Shown: positions 28,336 through 48,697, numbered from the stretch's first letter. The stretch: DNA of 60,036 nucleotides from Candidatus Woesearchaeota archaeon (GCA_964534185.1 CAZHOH010000007.1:1-60036); one strand, 5' to 3'. Notes: generated by a model from the letters alone, not told the origin. A program made the numbers and translations.

Positions 28336-28491
28336 ATGATGGCGACGAAATTTAGATGCAAAAGATGCAACTTTGCTTTTAGAGTTGATAACCTCTCCCG
28401 CAAGTTTTGTCCAAATTGTGGTGAGAATGAAATTGAAAAAGAGAAAAGTGCTGAAGAACTTGTAGATAGTGTGGATATTTATGGAAAATAA
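28336..28491 (+). CDS. Small zinc-ribbon protein (51 aa), absent from the ORF track
   Basis: MMATKFRCKRCNFAFRVDNLSRKFCPNCGENEIEKEKSAEELVDSVDIYGK; CxxC...CPxCG; fills the gap and overlaps the aglB start. Confidence 0.75.
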   Translation: MMATKFRCKRCNFAFRVDNLSRKFCPNCGENEIEKEKSAEELVDSVDIYGK

Positions 28492-31255: not shown

Positions 31256-31289
31256 GCAGTTTTTTAAAACATAATTGTTTATATTTTTG

Positions 31290-32282
31290 ATGGAGAAAAT
31301 TTTGCTTTTGACAGTTGTTTTGGCTTTTGCTACGACTTTTTTTCTTATGCCTAAATGGATAAAAAGGGCAAAGAGAGCAGGGCTTGTTGGAAAAGATATC
31401 CATAAAAGAGATTTTAGAGAGGTGGCTGAATCTGGAGGAATAATTGTGTTATTTGGTTTTATGTTAGGGGTGCTGGCTTATATTGCGATTAATACTTTTT
31501 ATTTTGATGCTATAAATTATAATGTGGAGATATTGGCTTTATCTTTAAGTGTGATATTGGTTTCTTTTGTTGGAATAATTGACGATGTTCTTGGATGGAA
31601 AGTGGGATTAGGAAGGAATGCTAGATTACTTCTTGTTTTGTTTGCGGCTATTCCTTTGATGGTTATTAATGCAGGAGTTTCTGAGATTTCTATACCTTTA
31701 TTTGGGATTGTTGATGTGGGAATATTTTATCCTTTGTTATTGATACCTTTAGGTATTGTTGGAGCTTCTACGAGCTATAATTTTTTAGCAGGGTATAATG
31801 GATTAGAGGGAGGTCAGGGGATATTGATTGTTGGGGCTTTGTCTATTGCTGCGTGGGCTACTGGAAATGCTTGGTTAGGATTAATAGGTTTTTGCATGGT
31901 TGCTTCTCTGGGAGGGTTTTTATATTATAATTGGAGTCCTGCAAGAGTTTTTCCAGGTGATGCATTAACTTATAGTGTTGGAGCTTTAATTGCTGGGATG
32001 GCAATCTTGGGGAATTTTGAAAGGTTTGCAGTATTTATCTTTATTCCTTATATTGTTGAAACGTTTTTGAAGTTAAGAGGAGGATTAAAAAAGGAATCTT
32101 TTGGAGATGTTAGGTATGATGGCTCAATTGGAAATAGGTATGAAAAAATTTATGGATTAGAGCATTTGGCTGTTAGGATTCTTGAAAAGATTAAAGGCAA
32201 GGCTCGTGAAAAAGAGGTTGTTATCTTGATTTACTTATTTCAAATTATGCTTATAATTATTGGTTTTTTGATTTTCTTTTAA
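31290..32282 (+). CDS. UDP-GlcNAc:dolichol-phosphate GlcNAc-1-phosphotransferase (AglH/Alg7, MraY-like)
   Basis: GKDIHK, ESGG, GIIDD, NFLAGYNGLE, FPGD. Confidence 0.92.
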   Translation: MEKILLLTVVLAFATTFFLMPKWIKRAKRAGLVGKDIHKRDFREVAESGGIIVLFGFMLGVLAYIAINTFYFDAINYNVEILALSLSVILVSFVGIIDDVLGWKVGLGRNARLLLVLFAAIPLMVINAGVSEISIPLFGIVDVGIFYPLLLIPLGIVGASTSYNFLAGYNGLEGGQGILIVGALSIAAWATGNAWLGLIGFCMVASLGGFLYYNWSPARVFPGDALTYSVGALIAGMAILGNFERFAVFIFIPYIVETFLKLRGGLKKESFGDVRYDGSIGNRYEKIYGLEHLAVRILEKIKGKAREKEVVILIYLFQIMLIIIGFLIFF

Positions 32283-32283
32283 A

Positions 32284-33513
32284 ATGATAAAGAAGCTGAT
32301 GAAAAATGAGTTTGTGAAGGGAAGTTTTATTCTTTTTATAATGTTTAATATTTTTAATTTTTTGAACTTTGTTTTCCAGTTTTCTATGATTAGACTGCTT
32401 GGGCCTGCAGATTATAGTGTGTTGGCTGTTTTAATGACTTTTCTTTATTTTGTTGCAATACCTTCTGAAAGTATTCAGTTAGTTGTGGCGCGATATTCTG
32501 CAAAGTTTAAGGTTGAAAATAGTAAAGAAAAATTAAAGGATTTGTTGGTTAAGATATATAGGAAAGGTGTTCGGATGAGCTTTTATTTATTTATTTTTTT
32601 AATTCCTGTTTTTGCTGTGCTTGCTTATTTTATGGAGATTGATTTTGTTTTGTTTTTGATTATTGGGTTGAGTGTGTTTTCTATTTTTCTATTGTCTCCG
32701 AATAAAGGAGCTTTACAGGGGTTGGGGAGATTTAAGTCTCTTGGAGTGAATATGCTTACTGAAGGAGGGATAAAAGTTGGGCTTTCTATAATTTTAGTTC
32801 TTGTTGGGATGCAGGTTTTTGGAGCTGTTTTTGGCATTGTTTTAAGTATGGTGGGGGCTTTTTTTGTTTCTTCTTACTTGTTAAATGATGTTCTTGGAGG
32901 TAAAAGAGATGAATCTGGAGTTAGTAAAATCTATTCATATGGGACTCCTGTTGTTATGACTTTAGTTGCTGTTATGCTGTTCCAGAGTTTGGATATCCTG
33001 ATTTCGAGACTGGTTTTTAGTGAGAATATCGCAGGACAGTATGCTGCTGCAAATCAAATAGGAAAAATTATATTTTTTGGTACTGCTGCTATAAGCAAGG
33101 CAATGTTCCCTTTGTCTTCTGCAGAGTTTGAAAAAGGAGTTAGCTCTAAAAAAATGCTTTATAGGTCACTTGGAATGGTTGCAGGACTTAGTTCTGTTGC
33201 CTTAGTTGCTTTTGCTGTATTTCCAGACTTGATAATAAGTATTTTGGCAGGTCCTGAGTATGTAGAAGTTACTAAAATTGTGTTTAAAGTGGGTGTTGCT
33301 TTTACAATGATTTCTTTAACAAATATCACTCTACTGTATGGCATTTCTGTTGACAAGCCTCCTAAGATTTTGCAAGTTGTTGGTTTTTTGATTGTTCAGA
33401 CAATTATTCTTTTTGTTCTTTCAGAGAGCCTTGATAGTTTTGCTACAGGGATGATGCTTTCTGGAATTTTTTTGTTTTTGAGTAGTTTGTTTGTAGTTCT
33501 TAAAAGGAGATAA
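32284..33513 (+). CDS. Oligosaccharide flippase (Wzx/MOP family)
   Basis: 12 or more TM helices, RLLGPADY, AGQYAAA, FP motifs. Confidence 0.88.
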   Translation: MIKKLMKNEFVKGSFILFIMFNIFNFLNFVFQFSMIRLLGPADYSVLAVLMTFLYFVAIPSESIQLVVARYSAKFKVENSKEKLKDLLVKIYRKGVRMSFYLFIFLIPVFAVLAYFMEIDFVLFLIIGLSVFSIFLLSPNKGALQGLGRFKSLGVNMLTEGGIKVGLSIILVLVGMQVFGAVFGIVLSMVGAFFVSSYLLNDVLGGKRDESGVSKIYSYGTPVVMTLVAVMLFQSLDILISRLVFSENIAGQYAAANQIGKIIFFGTAAISKAMFPLSSAEFEKGVSSKKMLYRSLGMVAGLSSVALVAFAVFPDLIISILAGPEYVEVTKIVFKVGVAFTMISLTNITLLYGISVDKPPKILQVVGFLIVQTIILFVLSESLDSFATGMMLSGIFLFLSSLFVVLKRR

Positions 33514-35879: not shown

Positions 35880-36884
35880 ATGGAAAAACTGCCCAAGATA
35901 AGTTTTGTGTTATGTGTTTATAATGAAGAGCCTAGAATTAGGCATTGTTTGGATAGTCTACTTGTCCAAGATTATCCTTTGAATAAGATTGAGGTTTTGG
36001 TTGCAGATGGAGGTTCTGGTGATAAGACTGTTGAAATTGTTAAAGAATATGCTAAAAAATATCCTAAAATAATTTTTTATCTTCACAATCCTGCTAAATA
36101 TAGTGAAGGAGAAGGTTGTGGAAAGGACAATACTTCAAGAAAAGCTAATGGAGAGACCATTGCCTTTATTGATGCAGATAATATTCTTGTTCAAAAAGAT
36201 TGGATAAAGAAAATGATTAAGCCGTTTGAAAATTCAGAGATCTCTGCTGTTCAGTCTCGGATGTTTGTGCCAAAAAATGGAGGTATTATTGACAGGTATT
36301 TGGGAGCTATTGGAATTGAAGATCCTTTTGCAGTACCTTATTCCTTGAACTCGCAAGTTATTATGTGTCCTAAAAGATTCAGACATGTTAAAGATGGAGA
36401 CTATTTTGTTTACACTGCAAGAGTTGATAATTTTCTTTATGCAGGAAATAACGGGTTTTTTATCAGAGCTAAAGATTTTTTTGATACTGGAGGATATACA
36501 AGAGATATAGAGAACTTTTACAGGATGGCAAAAGAAGGTTATAAGATTGCAGTTCCTAGGCAGGCATTATTGCACCATAAGACTGCTACGACTTTGAAAA
36601 ATTTTATTTTGAAAAGGGGGAAATATGTTTATAGGCATCTGAAACATTATGAAGGCAGAGAGTTTTATTGGTTTGATTTAACAAGGAATAATTTATCTCA
36701 GAATCTTAAATTTTTGAAGACTGTTTTTTTCAATTTATTGTTTGTTCCAGGATTTTTTGAGGGTATTGAAATGGCTGTTAAGAAGAGGGAAGTATCCTGG
36801 CTTATTCACCCGCTTATGTTGTTTTTTGTTACGATAGATTATTGTTTGATAAAGTTGTATTTTGTTCTTGGGCTGGATTCCTGA
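35880..36884 (+). CDS. Glycosyltransferase family 2
   Basis: YNEE, DGGSGDKT, FIDAD, GG.TRD. Confidence 0.9.
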   Translation: MEKLPKISFVLCVYNEEPRIRHCLDSLLVQDYPLNKIEVLVADGGSGDKTVEIVKEYAKKYPKIIFYLHNPAKYSEGEGCGKDNTSRKANGETIAFIDADNILVQKDWIKKMIKPFENSEISAVQSRMFVPKNGGIIDRYLGAIGIEDPFAVPYSLNSQVIMCPKRFRHVKDGDYFVYTARVDNFLYAGNNGFFIRAKDFFDTGGYTRDIENFYRMAKEGYKIAVPRQALLHHKTATTLKNFILKRGKYVYRHLKHYEGREFYWFDLTRNNLSQNLKFLKTVFFNLLFVPGFFEGIEMAVKKREVSWLIHPLMLFFVTIDYCLIKLYFVLGLDS

Positions 36885-38532
36885 TTATTTCATAAACAAA
36901 AACATCTTGGAAAAGTCCGTGTAATTTGAAGCCAATATTTTCATAATTTATCTGCTGAGGTAAATTTTGTTGTCCTGATGTGAAATCGACTTTGGAGTTG
37001 GTGAAAGGTATTTCCCATGATGCGAAAGTTATTTGTCCTGAACTTGTTTGAGCATACTCTACTTTTTTCATCCATTCTGGATGGTTGGGTTCTGAAAATG
37101 AAACTAAAATAAACCTTGCTTCTGGATTTTGTTCTAATTTTGAAAGGAATTCTTCAAATGAGACATCTTCACTCTCTTCTTCTCCTGTTAACATCGCTAA
37201 ATTTATTACTTTTCTTTCTGAATAATATGCAGGTTGTGGCAAAGGTATTGAAATAATTATATCATTAGGATTTGAGTTTTCTTTAAGATAAAGTCCTGCT
37301 TGCCTTATGCCTTCAAAAGAGGGTGCCTTTGATTTGATTATTGTGTCTGCATGTTGGACTTGGTAGTACCCTCCTATGCCCATTAGTAAAACTATTGCAA
37401 TTATTGGAAGTGTCTTGTGATGTTTTTTGAAAAAATCTGCAATAAAGAGTGTTGATTTTGAGATACAGATAAATGCCCCAAATAGGAGGGGAAAATACCA
37501 TCTTGGTTCTCCAAAGCTATCAATTCTCATTTGATAGAATAAGAAATAGGAAAGAACTAAAATTATAGAGATTACTGAAAATAAATCTGCTTTTAGTTTC
37601 TGGGATTTCTTTATGTGTCCGAAGGACATTATGAGCGTCCCAGCCATTATTAAAAGCCCAAGGTAAAATAAAATAAATAAGGGGCTTGAGAAGTAATTTC
37701 CTGTTAAGAAATATGCTTCAAAAACATCGAATGGAAGGAAAGTAAATTCTGCGGCTCTTCTGTAAGTTCCTGCAACACTAGTTATAGGGTTTGTGAATAG
37801 GAAAGTTTCGAAGAGTAAAAGCAAAATCCCTGAAATTCCTAAAGCTATCCAGTTGCATTTGTCTTTAATTAAAGATTTGAAATCTTTTGATATTAACATG
37901 TAAACTAAAAAGATTGCTCCGAAAAGGAAATAGCCACGACGAGTTGCATAAGCTAGAATTGAGAGTGCTGCAGCTATCGGAACTGCCCACTGAGGATTTA
38001 TTTTATTGAATATTTTTTGTTTGTTTTCATAGCCTTGCCAGAAGATGAAAATGGCGAGAAAGCCGAGGAAAAGTCCGGGAATTCCTAAGTGAAATCTAAA
38101 TGTGTTGAATAATATTGGCCAGAATACTGCTATAATAAATGAAGAGATTAGGGCTATTCTTTTATCATTATACATTTGGGTGCAAAGATAATATGTCAAT
38201 AAAATTAGAAATATTGAAGGGATTACTTCTAAAACGAATTTTATTGTTGGTTCTGATATGCCTAATCTGAAAAACCAGCTTACAATAAATGGGAATATGG
38301 AGTTGTGTTGGGGGGTTATTATCCAATCCACAGGCAGTCCTGCGAGATTTTTTGCATAAGCCATGTAGTCTGCTTCATCCCACCAAAGTGGTTGGGTTTT
38401 TGTGATTGTGAAATAATATATCCTGATGGCAATTGCAAATAAAAATATTCCTAAAAAAGAGAGATTGTATTTATTAGAAAGCCAGTTTTTTATTTTCTCT
38501 TTTTTTTGTTCTAATTCTTTTTGTTCATCCAT
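36829..38532 (-). CDS. GT-C fold glycosyltransferase (PMT/GT39/ArnT-like)
   Basis: LWWDEADY loop after TM1, about 11 TM helices, EPRWY, soluble C-terminal domain. Confidence 0.88.
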   Translation of the reverse strand: MDEQKELEQKKEKIKNWLSNKYNLSFLGIFLFAIAIRIYYFTITKTQPLWWDEADYMAYAKNLAGLPVDWIITPQHNSIFPFIVSWFFRLGISEPTIKFVLEVIPSIFLILLTYYLCTQMYNDKRIALISSFIIAVFWPILFNTFRFHLGIPGLFLGFLAIFIFWQGYENKQKIFNKINPQWAVPIAAALSILAYATRRGYFLFGAIFLVYMLISKDFKSLIKDKCNWIALGISGILLLLFETFLFTNPITSVAGTYRRAAEFTFLPFDVFEAYFLTGNYFSSPLFILFYLGLLIMAGTLIMSFGHIKKSQKLKADLFSVISIILVLSYFLFYQMRIDSFGEPRWYFPLLFGAFICISKSTLFIADFFKKHHKTLPIIAIVLLMGIGGYYQVQHADTIIKSKAPSFEGIRQAGLYLKENSNPNDIIISIPLPQPAYYSERKVINLAMLTGEEESEDVSFEEFLSKLEQNPEARFILVSFSEPNHPEWMKKVEYAQTSSGQITFASWEIPFTNSKVDFTSGQQNLPQQINYENIGFKLHGLFQDVFVYEIIRNPAQEQNTTLSNNNLS

Positions 38533-38559: not shown

Positions 38560-39423
38560 TTATTTTGTGCTTTCGACGCGTTGCCAAACTTTATTAAATT
38601 CTCTTTTCCATAACCTTATATCTAAAAATACCCTTAACCAGATATAAATTTTGAGGACTATAAGAAGGATAAAATAGAATAAGTGTCTGAAAGATTTTAA
38701 TTCATAAGTTGATTTTAAAGCTGCATAAAATTCTTCTTTAAAAGAATTGAGCTTGGATATTTTAAAATATTGGTTTAACTGATAAAGTCTTGAAGCTGTT
38801 CGCTTTTTTTGTCGTATCCAATCTGGGAGGTTTGTTGGATATTTAACATAAACTTCTGCATTTGGTTCATAAATTGTTTTAAAACCTTGTGAGATAATCT
38901 TTAAAGATATGAAAGCGTCATCGGCTAAAATTTCTTCAGGAATTTTTTGGAACAACTCTTTTTTTATTGCATAACAATATCCTGAGCAAATTATGTTCTT
39001 GTTATTTTTTGATTGGTTTAATCTTAGACTATGAAAACCCTGTGAAAGGATATATGCCCAAAATCCAAATAGGCTATTTTTTGAATTTGTGGGAATTACT
39101 TTTGCTGAGACTGCACCTATTTTTTTATTTTTGAAGTGTTTGGTTAATTCTTTTATTGAATTTTCTGAGGTGAAAACATCTCCATCTGATAAAATAATAA
39201 TTTCTCCTTTTGTTTTAGGTATTGTATTATTTAACGCAGAGGGTTTTCCTTTTCCTGAATCTTTTATTGTTTTTATTTTATATTTTTTTGCTTGATTTAA
39301 TGTTTCTTTATCTGGTGCAGAAACTATAATCTCAAAGTTTTTTGGTTTTTGATTTAGAAAGGAGTTTATTGCTTTTCCAATAGTTTTTGGTTCTTTAAAA
39401 GATGTAATGACAATTGATATCAT
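38560..39423 (-). CDS. Glycosyltransferase family 2
   Basis: ITSFKEP, GKPSALN, SDGD, ADD, QKKR; alternative start at 39435. Confidence 0.9.
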   Translation of the reverse strand: MISIVITSFKEPKTIGKAINSFLNQKPKNFEIIVSAPDKETLNQAKKYKIKTIKDSGKGKPSALNNTIPKTKGEIIILSDGDVFTSENSIKELTKHFKNKKIGAVSAKVIPTNSKNSLFGFWAYILSQGFHSLRLNQSKNNKNIICSGYCYAIKKELFQKIPEEILADDAFISLKIISQGFKTIYEPNAEVYVKYPTNLPDWIRQKKRTASRLYQLNQYFKISKLNSFKEEFYAALKSTYELKSFRHLFYFILLIVLKIYIWLRVFLDIRLWKREFNKVWQRVESTK

Positions 39424-39424
39424 T

Positions 39425-40399
39425 TTATAAGGCATTTATCACTTCTTCAGGAGATATTGATTTTGTGAGTTCTTCATTGTATTGATCCATTTTTTCTGGG
39501 AAAAATTCCTGTAATTTTGAAGAGGTTATTTTTTTTAATAAATTATAAGATTCAATTTCATTTGGAGATGTGCAAAAAAAGAGTCCGATTGTTGGTTTTT
39601 TCAAAGCTAAAGCAATATGGAGTGCAAGAGTATCTGCGCAGACTATTTTGTCGCATGAATTAATTAAAGCTGAGAAAGTTTTAACAGAGTTGGCTGTATT
39701 TTTTGCATAAATTCGTGTTCCTTGCTGATTTAATTCTTTTTCTAAAGTTTGTATTGATTCAATTTCTTCTGGGCCGCCTAACAGAATTATTTCATAACCT
39801 TTTTCTTTAGATTTTGAAATGAACTCTTTAATATTTTCTTTGTGCCAGGCTTTTGAGGGCCATGTTTTTGAAGAACCAATATTCACTCCTAAAATTTTTT
39901 TGTTTTCTAAATTATTTTGTTTTAAGAAATTTTCTATATCTTTTTTATGTTGTTCAGATATTTGGATTATTGGCTCCTGTTTTTTATATGGTAAATTACA
40001 GATTTTAAAAATCATTTCCTGATATGTTTTCGTATTTGATCTCTTTAATTCATCATCAAAAACAGTGTTTAGATAATATTCTGCTTCAGGATTGAAGGGT
40101 GCCGGGAAGCCGTCAAAATCATAGTATCCCAATTTTTCTTTTGCATTTACTTGGTTGGCTAGACTTGTTCCTTTTTCATCTATTTCTAAACTATAAAGGA
40201 TATCGAACTGTTCTTGAGGAATTTCTGATGAGAAAGCTATTTTATCAATCTTGGGGTTTTGTTCTAAGATTTCCCTGCTTGCAGGCTTTGTTATCCAAGT
40301 TATTTCTGATTCTGGGAATTTTTCTTTTATTGCGTGAAGAATTGGAGTGGTTCTGACTACATCTCCTAAAGCTCCTAGTTTGATTATGCAGATTTTCAT
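39425..40399 (-). CDS. Glycosyltransferase family 9 (ADP-heptose:LPS heptosyltransferase-like)
   Basis: IIKLGALGDVVRTTP, KAW, GGPEE, DTLALHIA.AL.KPTIGLF. Confidence 0.9.
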   Translation of the reverse strand: MKICIIKLGALGDVVRTTPILHAIKEKFPESEITWITKPASREILEQNPKIDKIAFSSEIPQEQFDILYSLEIDEKGTSLANQVNAKEKLGYYDFDGFPAPFNPEAEYYLNTVFDDELKRSNTKTYQEMIFKICNLPYKKQEPIIQISEQHKKDIENFLKQNNLENKKILGVNIGSSKTWPSKAWHKENIKEFISKSKEKGYEIILLGGPEEIESIQTLEKELNQQGTRIYAKNTANSVKTFSALINSCDKIVCADTLALHIALALKKPTIGLFFCTSPNEIESYNLLKKITSSKLQEFFPEKMDQYNEELTKSISPEEVINAL

Positions 40400-40432
40400 A
40401 AAATTTAAAACCTTGAAGGTTATTTAAAAATT

Positions 40433-40837
40433 ATGAAAGTGTATATTGCTGGTAAAATTGGCACAAAGTATGAGTTAAAGCAGCTTGAATATATTGACAA
40501 ATTATGTAAAGATTTGGGGTTTAAAACTTTTCTTCCCCATAGGGATGTTGGTTTTGCTAAAGGAATTGGAGATGTTAAAAGGATTTTTGAAGGAGATATT
40601 AAAAAGGGTTTTGAAGAAGTTGATATGGTTATCGCGCTTTTGGATGGACTGCATGTGGGGGCAGGGACTGCTTGGGAGTTAGGATATGCATATGCTAGAG
40701 GAATTCCAAGAATAGGTTTAAAGACTGATGAAAGTATTGGGGAGGCATTAGAGAGTTTAAGCGCAATTTTAATTGGTTCTATGAAAATCTGTGGTTCTTT
40801 AGAGGAGTTGGAAGAGGAGTTGAAAAAATTAGTCTAA
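40433..40837 (+). CDS. Nucleoside 2-deoxyribosyltransferase / N-glycosidase family protein
   Basis: VYIAG, FLPH, IFEGD, GTAWELGYAYA (catalytic Glu position). Confidence 0.88.
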   Translation: MKVYIAGKIGTKYELKQLEYIDKLCKDLGFKTFLPHRDVGFAKGIGDVKRIFEGDIKKGFEEVDMVIALLDGLHVGAGTAWELGYAYARGIPRIGLKTDESIGEALESLSAILIGSMKICGSLEELEEELKKLV

Positions 40838-41734
40838 AGTTTTGGTTGAGTTAATTTCTGTTTCTCTCCAACCATCTTTATAAGCCTTTTTTTGTCTTAA
40901 ATCTTTAAATGCTTTTAAGTAAATGTAAAGTCTTGCTGGAAATAATTCTAAAGTCCATAATAATTCTCTTGGGTTTTTCCATTGGGTTAATGCAAAAAAT
41001 GTTCCGAATTTTATTTCATTAAATAAAGATTTTGTTCTTGGCATGTTTGGAGCTATTTTAGTTAGATTTTCGTGGGCTTTTATATTTCGAGTTCTTTGAT
41101 TTATCCAGTCTTTCCAGTTATCTGGGTTTTTTACATAAACCTCTGCTTTATCTGCATAGGCGATTTTATATCCTTTTTTCCAGAATAAATAAGGAATAAT
41201 ACTATCTTCTGAAGTTTCAATTGGAAACTCAGTTATTATGCTGTTTCTTATTGCAAAAAGGTATCCGGAACATTCGAAGAATTTGTTTTCTTCTGATAAT
41301 TTTTTTCTTACTTTGTCTACACCCTTAAACGCGACTTTTGCCCAAAACCCATATTTTGTATTTTCTGAATCTATTGAGACTGGTTTGCCTGTAACACAAC
41401 CTATTTTTGGGTTTTGGAATTTTTTTGTAATTTCTTCCAAAGCATTTTGAGAAACAAAAACATCCCCATCTGATAAAATAAAAAAGTCTTCTTTATTATC
41501 TGACCAAAGTTCTTGAAATAGGATATTGAGTGCATAAGCTTTTCCTTCTCCAGGATCTAAAAAGAATTCTACTCTTTTATCTTTTATTAATTTTTTAATT
41601 TGTGTTTCTACTTCTGGAAATGGGTCGACTATTGTTATTTTTATTTGGCTGTTTTCTGCTTGATTTAAAAAAGTTGTAACTGCCCTTATTGTTGAGTTTG
41701 GCTCGTTGTAAGAAGTAATTATAACATTAATCAT
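40829..41734 (-). CDS. Glycosyltransferase family 2
   Basis: ITSYNEP, GKAYALN, SDGD, SED, QRTR. Confidence 0.9.
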   Translation of the reverse strand: MINVIITSYNEPNSTIRAVTTFLNQAENSQIKITIVDPFPEVETQIKKLIKDKRVEFFLDPGEGKAYALNILFQELWSDNKEDFFILSDGDVFVSQNALEEITKKFQNPKIGCVTGKPVSIDSENTKYGFWAKVAFKGVDKVRKKLSEENKFFECSGYLFAIRNSIITEFPIETSEDSIIPYLFWKKGYKIAYADKAEVYVKNPDNWKDWINQRTRNIKAHENLTKIAPNMPRTKSLFNEIKFGTFFALTQWKNPRELLWTLELFPARLYIYLKAFKDLRQKKAYKDGWRETEINSTKTLD

Positions 41735-41922
41735 TTTAATTCAAAAGGATAATCTGCAGGGCGGATTATTACCATTGTTTGTCCTTGATTTTCTAGTTCT
41801 AAACGGCATTTGCTTGAACCTTGTTTTCCAATATTTGAAATTTCTATTTCTTTGATTGTCCAGGTTTTTCCCATAAGTAAGACTTTGTCGCCTTTTTTAA
41901 GTTCTTTTGCTCTTTTCTTCAT
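41731..41922 (-). CDS. Stand-alone aIF-5A/EF-P N-terminal (KOW/SH3) domain paralog, 63 aa
   Basis: 17/60 identities by hand alignment to the aIF-5A at 2020-2409; SNIGKQGSSK versus SKTGKHGHAK; ATGA overlap with the downstream GT2. Confidence 0.8.
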   Translation of the reverse strand: MKKRAKELKKGDKVLLMGKTWTIKEIEISNIGKQGSSKCRLELENQGQTMVIIRPADYPFELK

Positions 41923-41943
41923 ATTATTTATTTGGGTGAAAGA

Positions 41944-41951
41944 CTTATAAA
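41944..41951. promoter_or_regulatory. Bidirectional TATA box (CTTATAAA / TTTATAAG) shared by the mini-aIF-5A gene and queC
   Basis: Exactly 22 nt from each divergent ATG (41922 and 41973). Confidence 0.68.
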
Positions 41952-41972
41952 TTTAATTATGCTGGCTGAAAA

Positions 41973-42668
41973 ATGAATAATGGGATAATTTTATGTTCTG
42001 GTGGCTTGGATAGTGTAACTACTGCTTTTTATGTGAAAAAGAAACTTGGTTTTGATAAAATTATTATTTTGTTTCTTAATTATGGGCAGAGAAATCTGAA
42101 TGCTGAAAGAAAATGTTCTCGAAAATGTGCTAAAAATTTGAGTGCTGAATTTAAAGAGATAGATTTATCGGAATTGGGAAAAATTTCTACTTCAATGCTT
42201 AATAGTTCTGAAAAAGCTACAAAGATAAAGGATGATTTGAAAGATACAAAAAAAGAATCGGGTAAATGGTATGTTCCTTTTAGAAATACGATTTTTTTGG
42301 CTTATGCTTTGGCTTATGCTGAGTCTTTCTATGTTAAAAGGGGAGAGATTTACGAGTTATTTGTGGGTTTTAAGAGTGAAGGAAAAGAGGCTTATCCTGA
42401 TACGACTCCTGAATTTGTGGAAGTTATGAATAAGATGCAAGAGGTGGCTGGCGGAGGGAAATTTAAGATAAATGCACCTTTGATTAAAATGGATAAAGAG
42501 GACATTGTAAATCTTGGGAATAAACTCGGGATTAATTTTAAGGAAACTTTTAGTTGTTATGTGAGCCCGGATGAGAAACATTGCGGAACTTGTTTGTCAT
42601 GTAGATTAAGGCAAGCAGGATTTTATTGGGCAGACGTTGAAGATGTGACAGAATATAAATCAGAATAA
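41973..42668 (+). CDS. queC: 7-cyano-7-deazaguanine synthase QueC family protein
   Basis: PP-loop SGGLDS, NYGQR, VPFRN, YPD, Zn site SCY..HCGTCLSC. Confidence 0.92.
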   Translation: MNNGIILCSGGLDSVTTAFYVKKKLGFDKIIILFLNYGQRNLNAERKCSRKCAKNLSAEFKEIDLSELGKISTSMLNSSEKATKIKDDLKDTKKESGKWYVPFRNTIFLAYALAYAESFYVKRGEIYELFVGFKSEGKEAYPDTTPEFVEVMNKMQEVAGGGKFKINAPLIKMDKEDIVNLGNKLGINFKETFSCYVSPDEKHCGTCLSCRLRQAGFYWADVEDVTEYKSE

Positions 42669-43754
42669 ATCCTCTAATTTCTTAATTAATTTGTCCCAAT
42701 TGAATTTTTCAACTGATTTTTTGGCTTGTATTTTTATTGATTCATTGTTTTGATTTATGGCCTTAGTTACTTTAGAAATTAATTGTTGTGTATTATGTGT
42801 TTCAAATAAAAGTCCATTTTTTCCATCCTGGATTAAATCAGCGTTGCCTTGATTGTTACTTGCAATTACAATTTTTCCTCTTGCCATTGCTTCTATTAAA
42901 GATTGAGGCATGCCTTCACTTAGACTTGGAAGAATGAAAATCTTGCAAGAGTCTAATTTTTTTATTTTTTCAGATATCTTGTAAATTGGCTCTGAGAAGG
43001 TAATTCTTTTTTCTAGATTTAATTTTTTTATTAGTTTGATTAATTCTTGATAATAATCTTGCTCTTTTGGGCCAACTATTTCAAATTCAATTTTTGGAAT
43101 TTGCTTAAGGGCATTTATTGGCGTTTTTAAGTTCTTTATTGGGCTTATTCTTCCTAAGAATAAAAGCTTATTCTCTTCTTTTTGAATTTTCTTAGTTGTA
43201 AAAAATTCTCTTGGAATTCCGTTAGGAATATACACTATTTTGTCTTTTTTAACTCCTAATTTTTGCAAATATGGGACCTCCCAATTTGTTATTGTTATTA
43301 TTTTGTTGAATTTTCTAAGTGTTCTTTTTCCTATTAAAATATCGTAAGTTTTGACTATTAAATTATTAATTAAACCTCTCTGCCTGTTGAAAGGAGCGTG
43401 AGTTACAAGAAAAACTTTTGTATTTAGTTTTTTTGCTAATTTTAGGGCTTTGGTGGTATGGGGGTGGCGGTAAGAGTGTGCAATTATTATGTCAGGGCTA
43501 AATTCTAAAGCTGACTTTTCAAAATCCCAGAACATAAAACTTTCTCCGCCAAGTTTTTTGAAAGGAAATCTTTTTATTTTTACGTCCTTAATTGTTTCTT
43601 CTGAAGGAGCTGTTTTGTCTGAACCTTTGATGGCATTTGATGAGAGGATTAAAATTTCATGTCCGTTCTTTGACAATTCTAGAGATTCTTGTTTGACTCT
43701 TTGGAAAACTCCACAAATTCCTGCTGAATAGTTTGTAAGTTCTAGTATTTTCAT
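42660..43754 (-). CDS. Glycosyltransferase family 4
   Basis: IPNGI, LGRISPIKN, SEGMPQSLIEAM. Confidence 0.93.
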   Translation of the reverse strand: MKILELTNYSAGICGVFQRVKQESLELSKNGHEILILSSNAIKGSDKTAPSEETIKDVKIKRFPFKKLGGESFMFWDFEKSALEFSPDIIIAHSYRHPHTTKALKLAKKLNTKVFLVTHAPFNRQRGLINNLIVKTYDILIGKRTLRKFNKIITITNWEVPYLQKLGVKKDKIVYIPNGIPREFFTTKKIQKEENKLLFLGRISPIKNLKTPINALKQIPKIEFEIVGPKEQDYYQELIKLIKKLNLEKRITFSEPIYKISEKIKKLDSCKIFILPSLSEGMPQSLIEAMARGKIVIASNNQGNADLIQDGKNGLLFETHNTQQLISKVTKAINQNNESIKIQAKKSVEKFNWDKLIKKLEDLF

Positions 43755-44551
43755 TTTTCTGCAATTGCATATATTGAATTTGCCAAGATATGTGCTTTTT
43801 TGTATTTATTTAGTAAAACATCTGTGTATTTAATTGGAAAAGTTAGCCAGCCAAAAAAGTTTAGAAAAAATGAGAAAAGAAAATTGTTGTTAAATGAAAA
43901 TAAGATTGCCAAATAGTATCTTAATGATTGACTTAAAGTTGAGCCTGGACCTGATAAAATCTCAAGTTTTTTGATTTTAAAACCTGCTAGCCTTAACCTT
44001 GATTCAATCCCTCTTATTGTCATCCTGTTAAAGTCATTAGGGGAGCCATGGAAAATATATACGAATGGTATGGAAATAAATATTTTTCCCTTTTTTTTTA
44101 AAACCCTGTATGATTCATTGATTACTTTTTCAGGTTCATCAATGTGTTCTAAAACGCTTTCTAAAAGAACTAAATTAAAAGAGTTGTCTTTGAAAGGAAG
44201 GTTTTTTGCATCTGCAAGAATATCAACCCCTTTTATAAGTCTAACATCTAAATTTATAGTATTTGGATAATTTATATTTCCAGCACCGATGTTTAGAGAA
44301 AGATTACTTTCTGAGATTAATTTGTTTTTTAAGGGAATTTTTGGAGTATATTCAAAACCTGGAGGACCAATTAGATAATGTATGTCTTTAATTTTTTTAA
44401 AATTGGTTGATTTACTTAGCTTTTCTCTAAAAGACTCTTTAGAAGTATTTTCTTCTAGAGGGTTTGAATTTAGAAAAGAGGGGATATTGTTAATTAATGG
44501 ATAATCTTTATTTTTTTTGAAATCGATTATTTTTTTAATTGTTGGTTTCAT
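43751..44551 (-). CDS. SAM-dependent methyltransferase
   Basis: LNIGAG, LPFKDNSF, VLEH, HGSPNDF.R. Confidence 0.9.
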   Translation of the reverse strand: MKPTIKKIIDFKKNKDYPLINNIPSFLNSNPLEENTSKESFREKLSKSTNFKKIKDIHYLIGPPGFEYTPKIPLKNKLISESNLSLNIGAGNINYPNTINLDVRLIKGVDILADAKNLPFKDNSFNLVLLESVLEHIDEPEKVINESYRVLKKKGKIFISIPFVYIFHGSPNDFNRMTIRGIESRLRLAGFKIKKLEILSGPGSTLSQSLRYYLAILFSFNNNFLFSFFLNFFGWLTFPIKYTDVLLNKYKKAHILANSIYAIAEK

Positions 44552-45278
44552 TTTTCATTATGTAATCTAACTTTTTTATAAATTTTGTATGTGGGAACCA
44601 CTTATCAATTTTACTGTTTTTTAATCCTATGAAATCCCAGGAATGTGCATAAAAGACTGGTTTTTTGGAAATGAGTTTTAATGATTTGAAATAAAAATAT
44701 AGAAGCCATTTTGGAAAGATTCTTACAATTAAAGAAACTGGAGGTAAGATTAATGAAACTACTGGAATTTCCTGTAGGTTATTTATTTTATGTGGGAAAG
44801 GTTTTGAGAAAAAAAGATAGAACGCACTTTTTGGCCTTTTTGGAAAAAATATGAATTGGAGAAAGTTTAGTGGAGTGAATGAAGAGTCATATTCAAAACC
44901 GTACTTTTGGAGAAGTTGAATCGTTTCTTTATCTATAGAGTGTTGTGGTGCTCTGAAACCTTTAGGGGTTATTTTTAAATATTTTTTGAATTCCTTGATT
45001 GATTTTTGTATTTCTTGTTCTTTTTCTTCATATGAGAAATCATCGAATCTTTTGTGAGAGTATCCATGGAGCGCTAATTCCCAACCTTTTTTGCTGAAAT
45101 GCTTGTAAATGTTTTTGTTTTCTTTTATAGTTGAAGATACAATGAAGAGTATAGGCTTTATCTTATGTTTATCACAAAGTTTTTCAAACTCTTTTAAACC
45201 TTTTTTTATCCCAAGATTTTTGTTTGTATGTAAATCTGGTTCTACATCTATTGTAAAGAGGATTTTATTAGGGCTCAT
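44535..45278 (-). CDS. Polysaccharide deacetylase (NodB/CE4)
   Basis: FTIDVE, HGYSH, GFRAP, YDSS, HSWD. Confidence 0.92.
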   Translation of the reverse strand: MSPNKILFTIDVEPDLHTNKNLGIKKGLKEFEKLCDKHKIKPILFIVSSTIKENKNIYKHFSKKGWELALHGYSHKRFDDFSYEEKEQEIQKSIKEFKKYLKITPKGFRAPQHSIDKETIQLLQKYGFEYDSSFTPLNFLQFIFFPKRPKSAFYLFFSKPFPHKINNLQEIPVVSLILPPVSLIVRIFPKWLLYFYFKSLKLISKKPVFYAHSWDFIGLKNSKIDKWFPHTKFIKKLDYIMKNETNN

Positions 45279-46318
45279 TGTTCTTGGTAAATTTTTTTTA
45301 ATTTAGAGGCTATTGAATCCCAGTCATAAATTTCTGATAACTTTTTACCTCTTATTCCGATTGTTTTCATTTTCTGGGAGTTTTTTATCGAGTATTCTAA
45401 TTTATCCTCTAAATCGTTTGCATTTTGATTTTTGAAGAATATTGCTTCGTCTTTGATTACTGATTTGAAAGCAGGGATGTCCGATACTATTAAAGGACGC
45501 CCTGATGCTAAAGATTCAAAAAGGGTTAAAGGAAGTCCTTCCCATAGGCTTGGTAAAACTATGCAATAAGACGATTTAAGGCTTTTCACAATTTCTTTTC
45601 TATCTGAAATATATCCTCTCCAAATTATGTTTTTGTTTATGAATTCTTTTTGAAGTTCTTTGGCGTATTCATTTATTTCTCCGATTATTTCTAAGCGAAA
45701 TTGAGGATATTTTTTGTTTAAATTAGAAAAAGCTTTTAGTAAATAGATTATGCCTTTTTGTCTATGAATTCTTCCTATAAAGGTGATTTTCTTTTCCATC
45801 TTTGAGTCTATTTTTTGATATATTGATAGATCTACACCGTTTGGCAAATAAGCTAATTTTTTGAAATAGCTCTTAAGTGTTTTTTTATCTTCTTTATTTA
45901 CTGCAATTATTTGGTTTGCAAATTTTAAGGGATTTAGAAAAATAATTCTCAACAATTGATTGTCATAAAATTTGAATCCATTTATTCCATGAATCGTTAC
46001 AACAACTTTAAATCTAAGTCTTAAAATCGGAGTTAAATAATATAATAGATTTTCATGAAGATGAATTAGGGCATATTCTTTTCTTGGTTTTATTAATAGA
46101 TAAAGAAGATATATGGATGAAAAAAGTGCGAAAAAGATATTTCTCAAGAAAGTGGAGTAATGAGTTATAGGCAATTCTATCTTGTTTTTGCATAAAGAGC
46201 CTTTTTGAGTTAGGGCAGTACTGTTTATCCTTTGACTTATCTCAAAAATATGTCTCTCGCTGCCTCCTTCTTGGGGGGAAGTGAATCCGACCATTAAAAC
46301 TTTTTTCATTTTTTCCAT
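45275..46318 (-). CDS. Glycosyltransferase family 4
   Basis: GGSE, PNGVD, GRIHRQKG, WEGLPLTLFE. Confidence 0.93.
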   Translation of the reverse strand: MEKMKKVLMVGFTSPQEGGSERHIFEISQRINSTALTQKGSLCKNKIELPITHYSTFLRNIFFALFSSIYLLYLLIKPRKEYALIHLHENLLYYLTPILRLRFKVVVTIHGINGFKFYDNQLLRIIFLNPLKFANQIIAVNKEDKKTLKSYFKKLAYLPNGVDLSIYQKIDSKMEKKITFIGRIHRQKGIIYLLKAFSNLNKKYPQFRLEIIGEINEYAKELQKEFINKNIIWRGYISDRKEIVKSLKSSYCIVLPSLWEGLPLTLFESLASGRPLIVSDIPAFKSVIKDEAIFFKNQNANDLEDKLEYSIKNSQKMKTIGIRGKKLSEIYDWDSIASKLKKIYQEQ

Positions 46319-47190
46319 TGTTTTGGGACTTTGACTTTTAATTCTTTTTCAAGCAAATTTATTTCTGGCTCAAAATATCTTTTTAGATATTCTTTTGTTT
46401 TAGGCGGGATTTTTTTAAATTTGCCTTTTGACTTGACATTTGCCTTGTAGTCTATGTAATTAATTATTTTTCTAATTCCTGTTGTGTCTATTAAAAATCT
46501 GAAATAATTTACTATCCCCAACTTATTTAGGAACATTGAAACTTTTTTTGTGGTTCTTCTAATTTGAGGGAGTTTTAAATCATCTGTCGTATTTTTATCT
46601 ACATTTAATTTCAAATTTATCTTTTCAATATTTAAAAAATTGAATAAATCCTCTAGAGTTTTTTTTGGTGAATCTTTTATGTCCTTCATGAAAATGATAT
46701 GTATTTGTTTTTTTGGAAATTTATCAAAAAAGGGCTTTAACAATTCAAAATATCTGCTGTGATGTAAGAGATCTTTTCTTTGGCTTACATACTCCTGAAA
46801 TGAACCTTTTATTTCACCATTTGTGTACATTAACCTATATAAAGAGTATTCGTGCTCTACGGGATTTCTAAGGCAGAAGATTATTTTTACATTCGGAAGT
46901 TTTTCTTTTATTTCTTGAGCAGAAGAGGTATCTAATGCTGTCAAAATACTCATATCTATTATTTTTTTGTCCTTAGGTGCATTTTTAAAATAGCTTAGAT
47001 AACCTTTCCACCCCATTTTTCTATTTGGATTTTTGAGATTTTTATTCGAAAGATAATAATAAGTTTTATTGAAATAATTTATTTCTTTGTTCTTGGGAAT
47101 GAATATTTGGGGATGTTGTTTCAACACATTAAAAAGCCAAGTTGTTCCGGATCTTGGCATCCCTGCTACAATTACGTCCGGCGTTTTCAT
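46306..47190 (-). CDS. PAPS-dependent sulfotransferase
   Basis: 5'-PSB GMPRSGTTWL, HPQI, KE..YF, 3'-PB LRNP...YS. Confidence 0.9.
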   Translation of the reverse strand: MKTPDVIVAGMPRSGTTWLFNVLKQHPQIFIPKNKEINYFNKTYYYLSNKNLKNPNRKMGWKGYLSYFKNAPKDKKIIDMSILTALDTSSAQEIKEKLPNVKIIFCLRNPVEHEYSLYRLMYTNGEIKGSFQEYVSQRKDLLHHSRYFELLKPFFDKFPKKQIHIIFMKDIKDSPKKTLEDLFNFLNIEKINLKLNVDKNTTDDLKLPQIRRTTKKVSMFLNKLGIVNYFRFLIDTTGIRKIINYIDYKANVKSKGKFKKIPPKTKEYLKRYFEPEINLLEKELKVKVPKQWKK

Positions 47191-47789
47191 TTTTTAATTG
47201 CCACACCCAATAGATTATTTTTTGTTTTTGAAAATAGGAAATCAAATGCTTTTAAATTATATCTCCACAATAATGGGATAGCCCTAAGCCTTTTGATAAA
47301 GATTTTTTCGAATCCGTGCATCTGAAGTGCTTGACAAAGGCTATTCATTGTGTAAGGAGTGCAATGAGTGTAATCGTCAAAAAATTCGCCTAAAGACAGA
47401 TGTTTGGCATTTGGAGTCATAATAATTACTCTCCCTTTTTTTTTCAAAATTCTATGATGTTCACTAAAAAATTTATATGTATCTAAGATGTGTTCTGCTA
47501 TATCTCTTGAGATTATTAAATCAAACTCTTGATTCTTTAGTGGCAAACCCTTAGTTATATCTCCTTTTATACACTCTCTGAACTTTGGATCTAAATCAAC
47601 TGCTGAAACATTCTTATATCCTAATTTTTTAAGTGCGAAATAAAAATGCCCTCTTCCTGAGGCCAAATCCAATATTTTTATTTCTCTGTCCTTTGGAATA
47701 AATCCTCTTTCCACTAACCACCTTATGAGGTTAAAGTTATATTCTATTTCATATTTTTTTGGTTTTTGATGCCAGTAACTAAATTCCAT
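47187..47789 (-). CDS. SAM-dependent methyltransferase
   Basis: ILDLASGRG, AEHI, RILK, TPN, DDYTH. Confidence 0.9.
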   Translation of the reverse strand: MEFSYWHQKPKKYEIEYNFNLIRWLVERGFIPKDREIKILDLASGRGHFYFALKKLGYKNVSAVDLDPKFRECIKGDITKGLPLKNQEFDLIISRDIAEHILDTYKFFSEHHRILKKKGRVIIMTPNAKHLSLGEFFDDYTHCTPYTMNSLCQALQMHGFEKIFIKRLRAIPLLWRYNLKAFDFLFSKTKNNLLGVAIKK

Positions 47790-48670
47790 TATATCTTCCT
47801 GTAAATACGCTTTATAATCCTAATCTTTCTTGCTAATGCTCTTATTAGGGGATATTTTCTGTTTGTTGAATAGATTGGCTGTTCAACTATTTCTCCACCA
47901 AACCTCTCTTTAAATTTATTTATATTGTAGGTTTTGTCTCCTTCAATTGCTTCTTTATCGTATCCTCCTAAGTCCACATAGTTTAAACCTTGATTTTTTG
48001 AGAAAAGGATTAAGTTCCAGTATAAGAATGGCATTGCCTGGAGTTTTGTTCCTTTTTCTGTGGAGGCAGTTAAATCAAGAATCGAATAATTGTTTTCTTT
48101 ATCAATTAAGAGCAATCCTCCTGCGAGCATTTCTGAGTCTTGTTTTACGATAAATAGTTTTGAAATAGGAGTATTCGCTAATTTTTGTATGAATTCAATT
48201 TTCTCAGGCTTAAAGTTATTTTTGGCAATGTTTTTGTATATTTGGTGAAACTGATTAATTTTGGCAAGATTAACTTCTTCAAAAATCAGCTTGTTTTTTT
48301 GGGCTGTTTTTACTCCCCATCTTATTGATTTTTTTTCTAAATTTTTCCATAATTCCTCTTCTGTTTGTTTGAGGTTAATAAGGATTGTATAATTGGTGTT
48401 TTTTATGAAGCCTTGATTTTTTAAGATTTCTTCATTTTTATTTATGAGTGTTGGTGAAAGAAGTCCATAATAATAGCCCTTTGAGCTTTGTTTTAATAGT
48501 GTTAAATCCTCTTTGTTTGGAACTCCACGGGTTTCTAAAGTTTTTTTCTTTATGCCTAAAAATGAAATTTCTTTTTCGATTACAAAGAAATTCTTGTTGA
48601 GTTCTATAAGTTTTTTTCCTGAAACTAATAATGCCTTTTTGTATTCTTTTGATTGGTAAACGCCTTTCAT
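47789..48670 (-). CDS. FemAB/FemX-like (GNAT-fold) aminoacyltransferase
   Basis: TILINL...EEELW.NL..K.IRW.V, LYW..I, DLGG, FKERFGG. Confidence 0.82.
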   Translation of the reverse strand: MKGVYQSKEYKKALLVSGKKLIELNKNFFVIEKEISFLGIKKKTLETRGVPNKEDLTLLKQSSKGYYYGLLSPTLINKNEEILKNQGFIKNTNYTILINLKQTEEELWKNLEKKSIRWGVKTAQKNKLIFEEVNLAKINQFHQIYKNIAKNNFKPEKIEFIQKLANTPISKLFIVKQDSEMLAGGLLLIDKENNYSILDLTASTEKGTKLQAMPFLYWNLILFSKNQGLNYVDLGGYDKEAIEGDKTYNINKFKERFGGEIVEQPIYSTNRKYPLIRALARKIRIIKRIYRKI

Positions 48671-48697
48671 TTTAAGCAATATTTGAAAATGATTTGG

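Follow-up and report, generated by a model that had tools for sequence, protein, structure and literature searches.

A DNA stretch of 60,036 nucleotides from a Candidatus Woesearchaeota archaeon (GCA_964534185.1 CAZHOH010000007.1:1-60036; hereafter the window) was analyzed at positions 38,560 to 42,668. The window is contig C7 of an archaeal metagenome-assembled genome (MAG) of 1.25 Mb, which consists of 51 contigs and is 86% complete. An original prediction, made from the sequence alone, had described the region as a candidate new system inside a glycosylation locus, where an exposed lysine (Lys33) of a small IF5A-like protein would accept or carry a nucleobase- or sugar-derived group. The region was found to be a three-gene add-on in a glycan operon, composed of a QueC ligase, a 63-residue IF5A domain I (mini-IF5A), and a nucleoside deoxyribosyltransferase (NDT)-family protein. 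The host glycan operon, predicted to encode GT4, GT9, and GT2 glycosyltransferases, a PMT_2-like GT-C protein, and a deacetylase, is a conserved one of Pacearchaeota-type DPANN archaea. The features of the region are as follows.

38560-39435, minus strand: GT2a, an optional, non-core extra GT2 glycosyltransferase (PF00535/PF13641)
39425-40399, minus strand: GT9, heptosyltransferase family (PF01075, 87.7 bits)
40400-40432: divergent spacer between GT9 and the NDT, 33 bp
40433-40837, plus strand: NDT-family protein, 134 aa (PF05014, 55.1 bits versus a cut-off of 28.8)
40829-41734, minus strand: GT2b, a GT2 glycosyltransferase (PF00535/PF13641) predicted to be translationally coupled to mini-IF5A
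41731-41922, minus strand: mini-IF5A, a predicted stand-alone IF5A/EF-P domain I, 63 aa (sub-threshold hidden Markov model matches, fold)
41923-41972: divergent spacer between mini-IF5A and QueC, 50 bp, with a central palindromic TATA element
41973-42668, plus strand: QueC-family PP-loop ATPase of a divergent clade, 231 aa (PF06508, 181 bits)
42660-43754, minus strand: GT4 of the backbone operon (PF00534/PF13439)

All of the open reading frames (ORFs) and families of the original prediction were recovered at these positions, with support from Pfam, NCBIfam, and fold comparisons. The proposed arrangement into two head-to-head units with overlapping ends was likewise recovered: the ends of GT2a and GT9 overlap by 11 nt, the convergent NDT and GT2b by 9 nt, mini-IF5A and GT2b by 4 nt, and the convergent QueC and GT4 by 9 nt, and the two spacers measure 33 and 50 bp.

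Conservation and co-inheritance of the module

The window's own genome was compared with 60 relatives (61 genomes in total), which are labeled in public records as Pacearchaeota, Woesearchaeota, or Nanoarchaeota. A true QueC (E <= 1.9e-45) and a mini-type short ORF were found in the identical 16 of the 61 genomes; in the other 45, the best PF06508 match was weaker than E 1e-9 and lay in other PP-loop proteins. Orthologues of the NDT and of GT9 (the latter at an identity of at least 47%) were each found in 15 of the 16 module genomes versus none of the 45 others. The single miss for both was G031, where the module lies on a 3.5-kb contig that ends after mini-IF5A. This pattern of 16/16 versus 0/45 is one among kin and not among independent genomes. 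Within the window's own genus, the block was found in 11 of 21 genomes, the window's genome included, and it also occurred in four further genera of the same family and in one genus of another family. Within a single genus, the genes of the module are thus acquired or lost together.

A pattern scan with one genome per GTDB species identified 74 further loci, all from other species, and the fractions that follow count only the loci with enough flanking sequence. GT2b adjoined mini-IF5A in 69/69 loci and QueC was beside it in 66/68, and the NDT was present in 61/67, GT9 in 59/65, and the membrane protein TM567 (described below) in 47/58. Of the 56 loci that held all five genes QueC(-) mini(+) GT2b(+) NDT(-) GT9(+), 53 had this same order and orientation. 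An orthologue of GT4 (at least 45% identity) was nearby in 28/64 loci. GT2a, which the original prediction had counted as part of the system, was ruled out as a core member, with an orthologue (at least 49% identity) in only 10 of the 74 loci. The co-occurrence predicted for homologs of mini-IF5A was borne out by the genome counts and by the synteny, and the reservation that linkage in one genome may be coincidental is refuted by the co-inheritance and the fixed order in 53/56 loci. The linkage of the module genes is not a coincidence, and the small ORF of mini-IF5A is a real gene.

For five of the exceptions to the synteny, namely two loci without a QueC nearby (also without an NDT) and three more without an NDT, the whole genomes were re-searched. 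A QueC orthologue was found elsewhere in all five genomes, and an NDT orthologue in four, with a fragment in the fifth. In L046 (genome G061) and L049 (G062) the module is split, as mini-IF5A and GT2b are together and QueC and the NDT are on other contigs. The genome G061 is 1.7 Mb, which is large for the group, and may be a mixed bin.

The spacer between mini-IF5A and QueC contains the palindrome TTATAAA at 41945-41951, 25-26 nt from both start codons. Among 64 other loci, this spacer measured exactly 50 bp in 43 and 49-51 bp in 55, and the 50-bp spacers have TTTATAAGT as their common centre, with A-rich flanks and a distance of about 25 nt to both starts. The shared TATA box suggested by the original prediction was thus found to be conserved in other loci. 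Such an arrangement fits one bidirectional archaeal TATA element that would drive two leaderless transcripts, QueC and mini-GT2b. The GT9/NDT spacer had a median of 52 bp over 54 loci, as compared to 33 bp in the window. The distance from the mini-IF5A stop to the GT2b start was between -8 and +4 nt in 48/67 loci, with a 4-nt ATGA overlap in 20, and mini-IF5A is predicted on this spacing to be translationally coupled to GT2b. No RNA run was listed as holding the window stretch, and only two DNA runs hold it, which may be the data from which the window came.

The IF5A-domain protein and the QueC homologue

Mini-IF5A scored below the cut-offs of the EFP_N (22.4 versus 23), IF5A-like_N (20.5 versus 27.1), and NF003076 (25.5 versus 138) models. 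Aligned with residues 14-71 of the aIF5A encoded by the same genome, it shows 29% identity and has Lys33 opposite the Lys of the GKHG loop, and its loop SxIGKQG resembles the SKTGKHG of aIF5A. An AlphaFold2 model built from an alignment of 65 orthologues had a predicted local distance difference test (pLDDT) score of 89.5. A Foldseek search with this model returned 31 PDB matches at E <= 1e-3, and those listed were to aIF5A, eIF5A, and EF-P domain I with TMq values of 0.8-0.9, including EF-P domain I bound to EarP (PDB 5WXK) and IF5A bound to deoxyhypusine synthase (DHS). As modeled, mini-IF5A has the fold of IF5A/EF-P domain I, and its Lys33 lies where IF5A carries hypusine. The loop in question is the site at which IF5A and EF-P are enzymatically modified by DHS, EpmA, and EarP.

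Among the 65 orthologues, residues E27, S29, K38, R40, R54, and P55 were invariant and K33 was at the hypusine position in 64, the exception having an inserted Lys-rich loop. The protein has no second domain, as the PF01287 OB-fold of full aIF5A is missing. A profile search of 1.84 billion representative proteins identified 69 clusters (50% identity) at E <= 1e-3, and nearly all members of the family were 60-70 aa long. No fusion of mini-IF5A to an enzyme was found among the eight longer matches scanned, of which six were of the IF5A type, one contained TPR repeats only, and one had no Pfam hit. In addition, no relatives were found in viral contigs scanned with the mini-IF5A alignment. The true aIF5A of the genome is encoded at 2020-2409 (plus strand, 142 bits) of the window, 40 kb from its truncated paralogue, and DHS is encoded on another contig (G000:C13:9053-9886).

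The QueC of the module belongs to family PF06508 (181.3 bits versus a cut-off of 22) and scored 148.7 bits with TIGR00364, just under the equivalog cut-off of 150.3. The SGGxDS PP-loop (SGGLDS) and four Zn cysteines were present in 65 of 65 orthologues, where Y37, Q39, E45, R104, N105, D143, and K175 were also invariant. The signature of canonical QueC is YxQxHxxE, VPxRN, and YPDC, with the zinc motif C(x)8CxxCxxC (PMC13329287; Biochem J 2026). While VPxRN was kept in the clade (R104 and N105 being invariant), the full canonical catalytic signature was not found: the position of the canonical His was S in 30, A in 13, T in 11, N in seven, and Q in three of the 65 sequences, and the Cys of YPDC was replaced by T in 48, A in 12, and S in five. 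The amine-side motif here is a His-less YxQ(x)5E, with a Tyr-to-Glu spacing one residue longer than in the QueC of B. subtilis and equal to that of Cap9.

Cap9 (9NTO) matched the QueC of the module at E 6e-9. In the crystal structure of Cap9-CdnD, the conjugated deazaguanine is reported to be held by Y115, D117, and R86 (bioRxiv 10.1101/2025.04.06.647259). These residues correspond to Y/F141, D143, and R104, the latter two of which were invariant. The pocket therefore looks conserved on its base side and altered on its amine side, as judged from the alignment. The QatC model NF041925 gave 31.7 bits versus a cut-off of 280. About 1,100 database proteins were related to this QueC at E <= 1e-10, and every source-given name among the 120 best relatives was '7-cyano-7-deazaguanine synthase'. 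Among the longer relatives, no fusion of QueC to a module partner was found; there was one GATase-QueC protein at 33% identity.

The QueC of the module is uncoupled from the tRNA deazaguanine pathway. QueD (PF01242) was found in 0/61 genomes, and a weak match in the window's own genome was rejected as a TPR protein (20.9 bits versus 22.4). The tRNA-guanine transglycosylase (TGT), QueE, FolE, and MptA, the latter two representing both types of GTP cyclohydrolase I, were not found in the window's own genome, which is 86% complete. Among the 61 genomes, TGT occurred in 6/16 module genomes versus 12/45 QueC-less genomes, and tRNA-guanine transglycosylation and QueC are consequently uncoupled. The 12 genomes with a TGT but no QueC or QueD (G004, G007, G017, G019, G021, G036, G038, G044, G045, G048, G053, and G055) imply that tRNA deazaguanine, if any, derives from salvaged 7-cyano-7-deazaguanine (preQ0) or a related base. 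A full-length QueE-like gene was found in one of the 16 module genomes (G040), where it encodes a radical-SAM protein of 229 aa directly after QueC (L038:4586-5272; G040:C31). The best NCBIfam matches of this protein were all QueE models, at 50-69 bits and under their cut-offs, and its position points to deazaguanine chemistry in one lineage. Other QueE matches in the relatives were discarded, as they mostly covered only a generic radical-SAM core (model positions about 24-114).

Each single absence of a pathway gene is weak, but the pattern across the 61 genomes is not. The QueC of the module is not a housekeeping enzyme, and the name 7-cyano-7-deazaguanine synthase is doubtful for the clade studied. 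The original prediction had named synthesis of preQ0, with partners encoded elsewhere, as the outcome that would speak against it; QueD was found in none of the 61 genomes, QueE and GTP cyclohydrolase I were not found in the window's genome, and TGT did not track the module.

The NDT and the backbone glycan operon

A profile of the NDT-family protein matched two NDT structures (7M5H and 7O62), with a weaker match to 4JEN, a CMP N-glycosidase. In an alignment of 58 sequences, E82 of the GTxxE motif, whose Glu is the nucleophile in this family, was invariant and aligned with the Glu of 7M5H. The protein belongs to the NDT family on its PF05014 match and would act either as a transferase or as a hydrolase.

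GT9 matched PDB 3TOV at E 5e-17 and was far below the cut-offs of all lipopolysaccharide heptosyltransferase equivalogs. No rfaE domain II (heptose-1-phosphate adenylyltransferase) was found in the window's own genome. An ORF of 161 aa inside the module at L043 (L043:9199-9684) scored 164.7 bits with rfaE domain II versus a cut-off of 181.5, and ORFs of the same BLAST cluster (154-167 aa) were inside the module at L040, L078, L094, L107, and L062.

Two more genes of the backbone operon flank the region in the window.

36829-38532, minus strand: TM567, multi-pass membrane protein and probable PMT_2/ArnT-like GT-C, without a Pfam hit of its own
44535-45278, minus strand: putative polysaccharide deacetylase (CE4-like), 247 aa, labeled from reading its translation alone

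The gene at 43751-44551 was likewise labeled from its translation. The clusters nearest to TM567 in the Atlas were PMT_2/ArnT, which is a lead only. Its syntenic homologue in the relative G004, which is 32% identical, scored 61.2 bits with PMT_2 and passed the cut-off, supporting the GT-C reading of TM567.

The same operon is found in genomes that lack the trio. A GT9::GT2 fusion of about 640 aa is encoded in seven of the 45 relatives without the module (G004, G007, G016, G019, G047, G050, and G057), for example at G004:C1:586688-588574 (L114:7689-9575). The N-terminal half is 32-37% identical to GT9 and the C-terminal half is 44-49% identical to GT2b, and Pfam confirmed Glyco_transf_9 and GT2 in one protein. 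This fusion is a Rosetta-stone link between the separate GT9 and GT2b of the window. In the four fusion loci that were fetched, a GT4 was upstream in all four, a deacetylase-like gene preceded the GT4 in three, and a TM567 homologue was downstream; orthologues of the deacetylase-like gene adjoined GT4 whether or not the locus held the trio. Compared to the fusion genomes, the module-positive genomes have GT9 and GT2b split and reordered, with QueC, mini-IF5A, and the NDT added. As relatives without the trio keep the same glycan operon, these three genes are an add-on to a glycan pathway. Of the system envisaged by the original prediction, the linked trio of QueC, mini-IF5A, and NDT stood; GT2a is an optional extra, and the backbone to which the glycosyltransferases belong also occurs without the trio, such that a three-gene add-on is the better description.

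The placement inside a glycosylation locus was confirmed. The locus around the module spans about 28.4-56.6 kb of the window and includes AglB/STT3, a PF00953 phosphosugar transferase, two flippases, several GT2 and GT4 glycosyltransferases, methyltransferases, and a PMT_2 protein. The module is bracketed by AglB/STT3, the PF00953 phosphosugar transferase, a flippase, and a second GT-C (PMT_2, 90 bits), and these bracketing genes are at 28469-31255, 31275-32282, 32284-33513, and 54814-56595. N-glycosylation and a PMT-type pathway both seem to draw on this locus. It also includes a FemAB-family match (47789-48679, minus strand, 31.9 bits) and a sulfotransferase-looking ORF (46306-47190, minus strand, labeled from reading only). 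Elsewhere in the window are a thymidine/AMP-phosphorylase-family protein (PF02885, PF00591, and PF07831; 9516-10982, minus strand) and an IF-2B-family protein (26564-27400, minus strand), which are kinds of genes typical of archaeal nucleotide-salvage pathways.

The surroundings of the module varied between loci. DegT aminotransferases and sugar epimerases were common nearby, and in about 13 of the 74 loci the place next to QueC that GT4 holds in the window was taken by a radical-SAM protein with B12 binding (about 511 aa, HpnJ/BchE-like by NCBIfam), for example at L041:5724-7259 and L045:5736-7271.

Proposed chemistry and its alternatives

Cap9 and QatC are reported to ligate 7-carboxy-7-deazaguanine (CDG) to protein N-termini (PMC13329287; bioRxiv 10.1101/2025.04.06.647259), and RoyL to ligate CDG to the epsilon-amine of free L-lysine (bioRxiv 10.64898/2026.04.15.718813). 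The conjugation analogy drawn in the original prediction has become stronger with these enzymes. By this analogy, the QueC of the module may ligate a 7-deazaguanine carboxylate to Lys33 of mini-IF5A, a reading to which we assign a probability of about 0.35. The QueC homologue would not make preQ0 for tRNA; it would adenylate the carboxylate (CDG, presumably imported) and transfer the acid onto Lys33, through the epsilon-amino group that this residue presents at the hairpin tip of mini-IF5A, in what would be a lysine-directed 'deazaguanylation'. The NDT-like enzyme would act at the N-glycosidic position, where it could either free the base from an imported nucleotide or ribosylate N9 of the tethered base. 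In Cap9 conjugates, N9 is reported to stay free (bioRxiv 10.1101/2025.04.06.647259). The modified mini-IF5A would then work with the coupled GT2 and with GT9 as an acceptor, a primer, or a specificity subunit. Acylation of Lys33 is the most economical of the readings. The exposed loop Lys is the only conserved hallmark of mini-IF5A and is the residue modified in IF5A and EF-P. The analysis itself shows the gene content, the co-inheritance, the synteny, the shared promoter element, the fold, and the conserved residues; we infer the acid substrate, the acceptor Lys33, the role of the NDT, and the link to the glycosyltransferases from these comparisons. The interpretation given by the original prediction is partly supported, with Lys33 as the presumed acceptor.

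Several points weigh against such a reaction. No source of CDG was found, with QueD in 0/61 genomes, a QueE-like gene in 1/16 module genomes, and no GTP cyclohydrolase I in the window's genome; the acid would therefore be imported or be something else. These absences of QueD and QueE, and that of TGT, come from MAGs of 61-98% completeness, where 'not found' does not equal 'absent'. The contact between QueC and mini-IF5A is presumed, and the link of mini-IF5A to GT2b (69/69) is at least as tight as that to QueC (66/68); at L046 and L049, mini-IF5A kept its place beside GT2b with QueC on another contig. Protein deazaguanylation as reported so far hits N-terminal amines and not Lys side chains (PMC13329287; bioRxiv 10.1101/2025.04.06.647259). 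The loss of the canonical His and Cys could equally fit a different substrate. A stable Lys amide would give the glycosyltransferases no obvious chemical handle, and the model is weakest at the step that would lead from a modified protein into the glycan pathway. Fusions of mini-IF5A or QueC with a partner were not found, at best a weak argument. A predicted complex of QueC (with ATP and Zn) and mini-IF5A scored 0.23 versus a mark of 0.32, without controls, and gives no evidence either way.

An extension of the proposal, which seems quite improbable, makes mini-IF5A a carrier: Lys33 would be acylated, the base ribosylated at N9, and the bound nucleoside would serve GT9 and GT2b, as a primer or as a tethered handle resembling a nucleotide sugar, in building a surface glycan. 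Such a glycan-linked carrier is a categorically new possibility. If true, it would amount to protein-templated glycan assembly with a nucleobase linker, recruited from the modification loop of a translation factor.

Glycan tailoring is the rival with the best prospects, although it too is unlikely. QueC would ligate a (deazaguanine) carboxylate to an amino sugar of a lipid- or nucleotide-linked glycan, for example to an amine freed by the deacetylase, and mini-IF5A would be an accessory or regulatory subunit of GT2b. The trio lies inside a glycan operon whose backbone exists without it, with the deacetylase-like gene and, in many loci, DegT aminotransferases nearby, and mini-IF5A is predicted to be translationally coupled to GT2b. 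Furthermore, QueC homologues of the RoyL type are reported to take various small amines (bioRxiv 10.64898/2026.04.15.718813), and WbpG of the PF06508 superfamily is described as an N-sugar amidotransferase (PMC13329287). However, the protein studied here is QueC-like with a Zn motif and not WbpG-like, the homologous GT2 domain works without mini-IF5A in the GT9::GT2 fusions, the NDT is given no role, and the invariant Lys33 loop is left unexplained.

A small-molecule pathway is distinctly less probable. In this case the NDT would free or swap a base, QueC would tailor a 7-deazapurine, and the glycosyltransferases would glycosylate it, yielding a deazapurine glycoside or hexosyl-nucleoside like huimycin or dapiramicin that is either free or later built into the glycan. 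Huimycin-type clusters join preQ0 genes with a base-glycosylating glycosyltransferase, but known clusters of this kind carry FolE, QueD, and QueE, of which QueD occurred in 0/61 genomes here. The weak match of the NDT profile to the CMP N-glycosidase 4JEN and the rfaE-domain-II adenylyltransferase in the module at L043, with ORFs of the same cluster in several others, agree with this scheme, as does the proteobacterial QueC-like cluster reported beside a PfkB-NDT fusion in about 89% of its neighborhoods (PMC13329287). Nevertheless, it gives no role to mini-IF5A and its invariant Lys, and the glycosyltransferases are part of a backbone operon that relatives have without the trio.

A housekeeping role, in which QueC turns salvaged CDG or 7-amido-7-deazaguanine (ADG) into preQ0 for archaeosine, the NDT serves salvage, and the position of the genes is meaningless, is very improbable. 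DPANN archaea depend on salvage, the databases name these proteins 7-cyano-7-deazaguanine synthase, and most QueC motifs are kept. In contrast, the canonical His and Cys are replaced, TGT is missing from 10/16 module genomes and present in 12/45 without QueC, the module comes and goes as a unit inside a single genus (11/21 genomes), and the order, the spacing, and the promoter shared with mini-GT2b are kept over 50 or more species.

Even less credence is given to an anti-virus defence akin to type IV CBASS (cyclic oligonucleotide-based antiphage signaling system) or QatABCD, with mini-IF5A as a deazaguanylated sensor or decoy. The ligase has a Cap9-like amine-side motif and the distribution within the genus is patchy, but the QatC model scored 31.7 versus its cut-off of 280 and the module is built into a glycan operon. 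The conserved core contained no CD-NTase, TGT-like Cap10, QatA, QatB, QatD, nuclease, or other effector, with the PADLOC library not being searched, and nothing was found in favor of the 'defence decoy' that the original prediction had offered. Least credible is that mini-IF5A, independent of QueC, is a substrate, competitor, or regulator of DHS that modulates the hypusination of aIF5A. The genome has both DHS and a full aIF5A and the loop SxIGKQG resembles SKTGKHG, but mini-IF5A occurs only where QueC does (16/16, with the NDT in 15 of 16) and shares its promoter with QueC.

The reading with Lys33 as the acceptor of a deazaguanine carboxylate can be compared with several known systems. Like the QueC of the module, Cap9 of type IV CBASS is a QueC-fold PP-loop ligase with the base-binding residues kept and the same His-less YxQ(x)5E spacing, and it works beside a base-handling enzyme, the TGT-like Cap10, where the neighbor here is NDT-like. 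However, Cap9 is truncated at about 185 aa, targets the N-terminal amine of a CD-NTase, and has Cap10 and Cap11 as partners in a bacterial defence operon. The core of the module contains no CD-NTase or TGT-like gene, the proposed acceptor is a Lys side chain on a protein with an IF5A domain, and the genes reside in an archaeal glycan operon. In QatC, a QueC-family enzyme has likewise been proposed to conjugate carboxy-deazaguanine to a small partner protein, QatB, but QatC is about 400 aa long with a remodeled active site without YxQxHxxE, VPxRN, and YPDC (PMC13329287). Additionally, the module is without QatA, QatB, and QatD, and its neighbors are glycosyltransferases. RoyL of roseomycin A biosynthesis, a deazapurine amide-bond synthetase and QueC homologue, is reported to join AMP-activated CDG to lysine by an amide at the epsilon-amino group (bioRxiv 10.64898/2026.04.15.718813). 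Its acceptor is a free amino acid, it is encoded in actinomycete biosynthetic gene clusters with FolE, QueD, and QueE, and its amine pocket has Tyr, His, and Glu, of which the His is replaced in the QueC of the module.

In the systems that modify the EF-P/IF5A loop (DHS, EpmA, and EarP), the acceptor shares its fold and the place of the loop residue with mini-IF5A. Beta-lysylation by EpmA also adenylates an acid before passing it to a Lys amine. Rhamnosylation by EarP offers a further likeness, as a glycosyltransferase can act on EF-P domain I alone (PDB 5WXK). These enzymes modify a full translation factor for ribosome function, whereas mini-IF5A is a truncated paralogue without the OB-fold in a glycan operon. 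Lastly, 'Cluster 4' of PF06508, from Proteobacteria with PfkB-NDT fusions, represents a second, independent association of a QueC-like protein with PF05014 (PMC13329287). It differs in its Cys motif CH(x)5CxxCxGCxK and in its other motif YGQ(x)6E, and no IF5A-like protein or glycosyltransferases are reported for it (PMC13329287).

Literature searches, within the library available, returned no description of a stand-alone IF5A domain or of a QueC-NDT-glycosyltransferase module in DPANN archaea, although the supplement of PMC13329287 may list the neighborhood. Several archaeal QueC clusters were left unanalyzed in that study (PMC13329287). Protein deazaguanylation was first described in 2025-2026 and is so far known for N-termini alone, from two bacterial defence systems. 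The module points to a so far undescribed protein modification, of lysine with a nucleobase, that would be tied to the assembly of glycans. Should Lys33 turn out not to be the acceptor, the doubt about naming this clade 7-cyano-7-deazaguanine synthase would still stand. A lysine-directed deazaguanylation, if true, would widen the chemistry to a truncated IF5A head, to archaea, and to a glycan operon, and it would provide the first function for a stand-alone IF5A domain, in which the modification loop of a translation factor would have been recruited as an acceptor or carrier.

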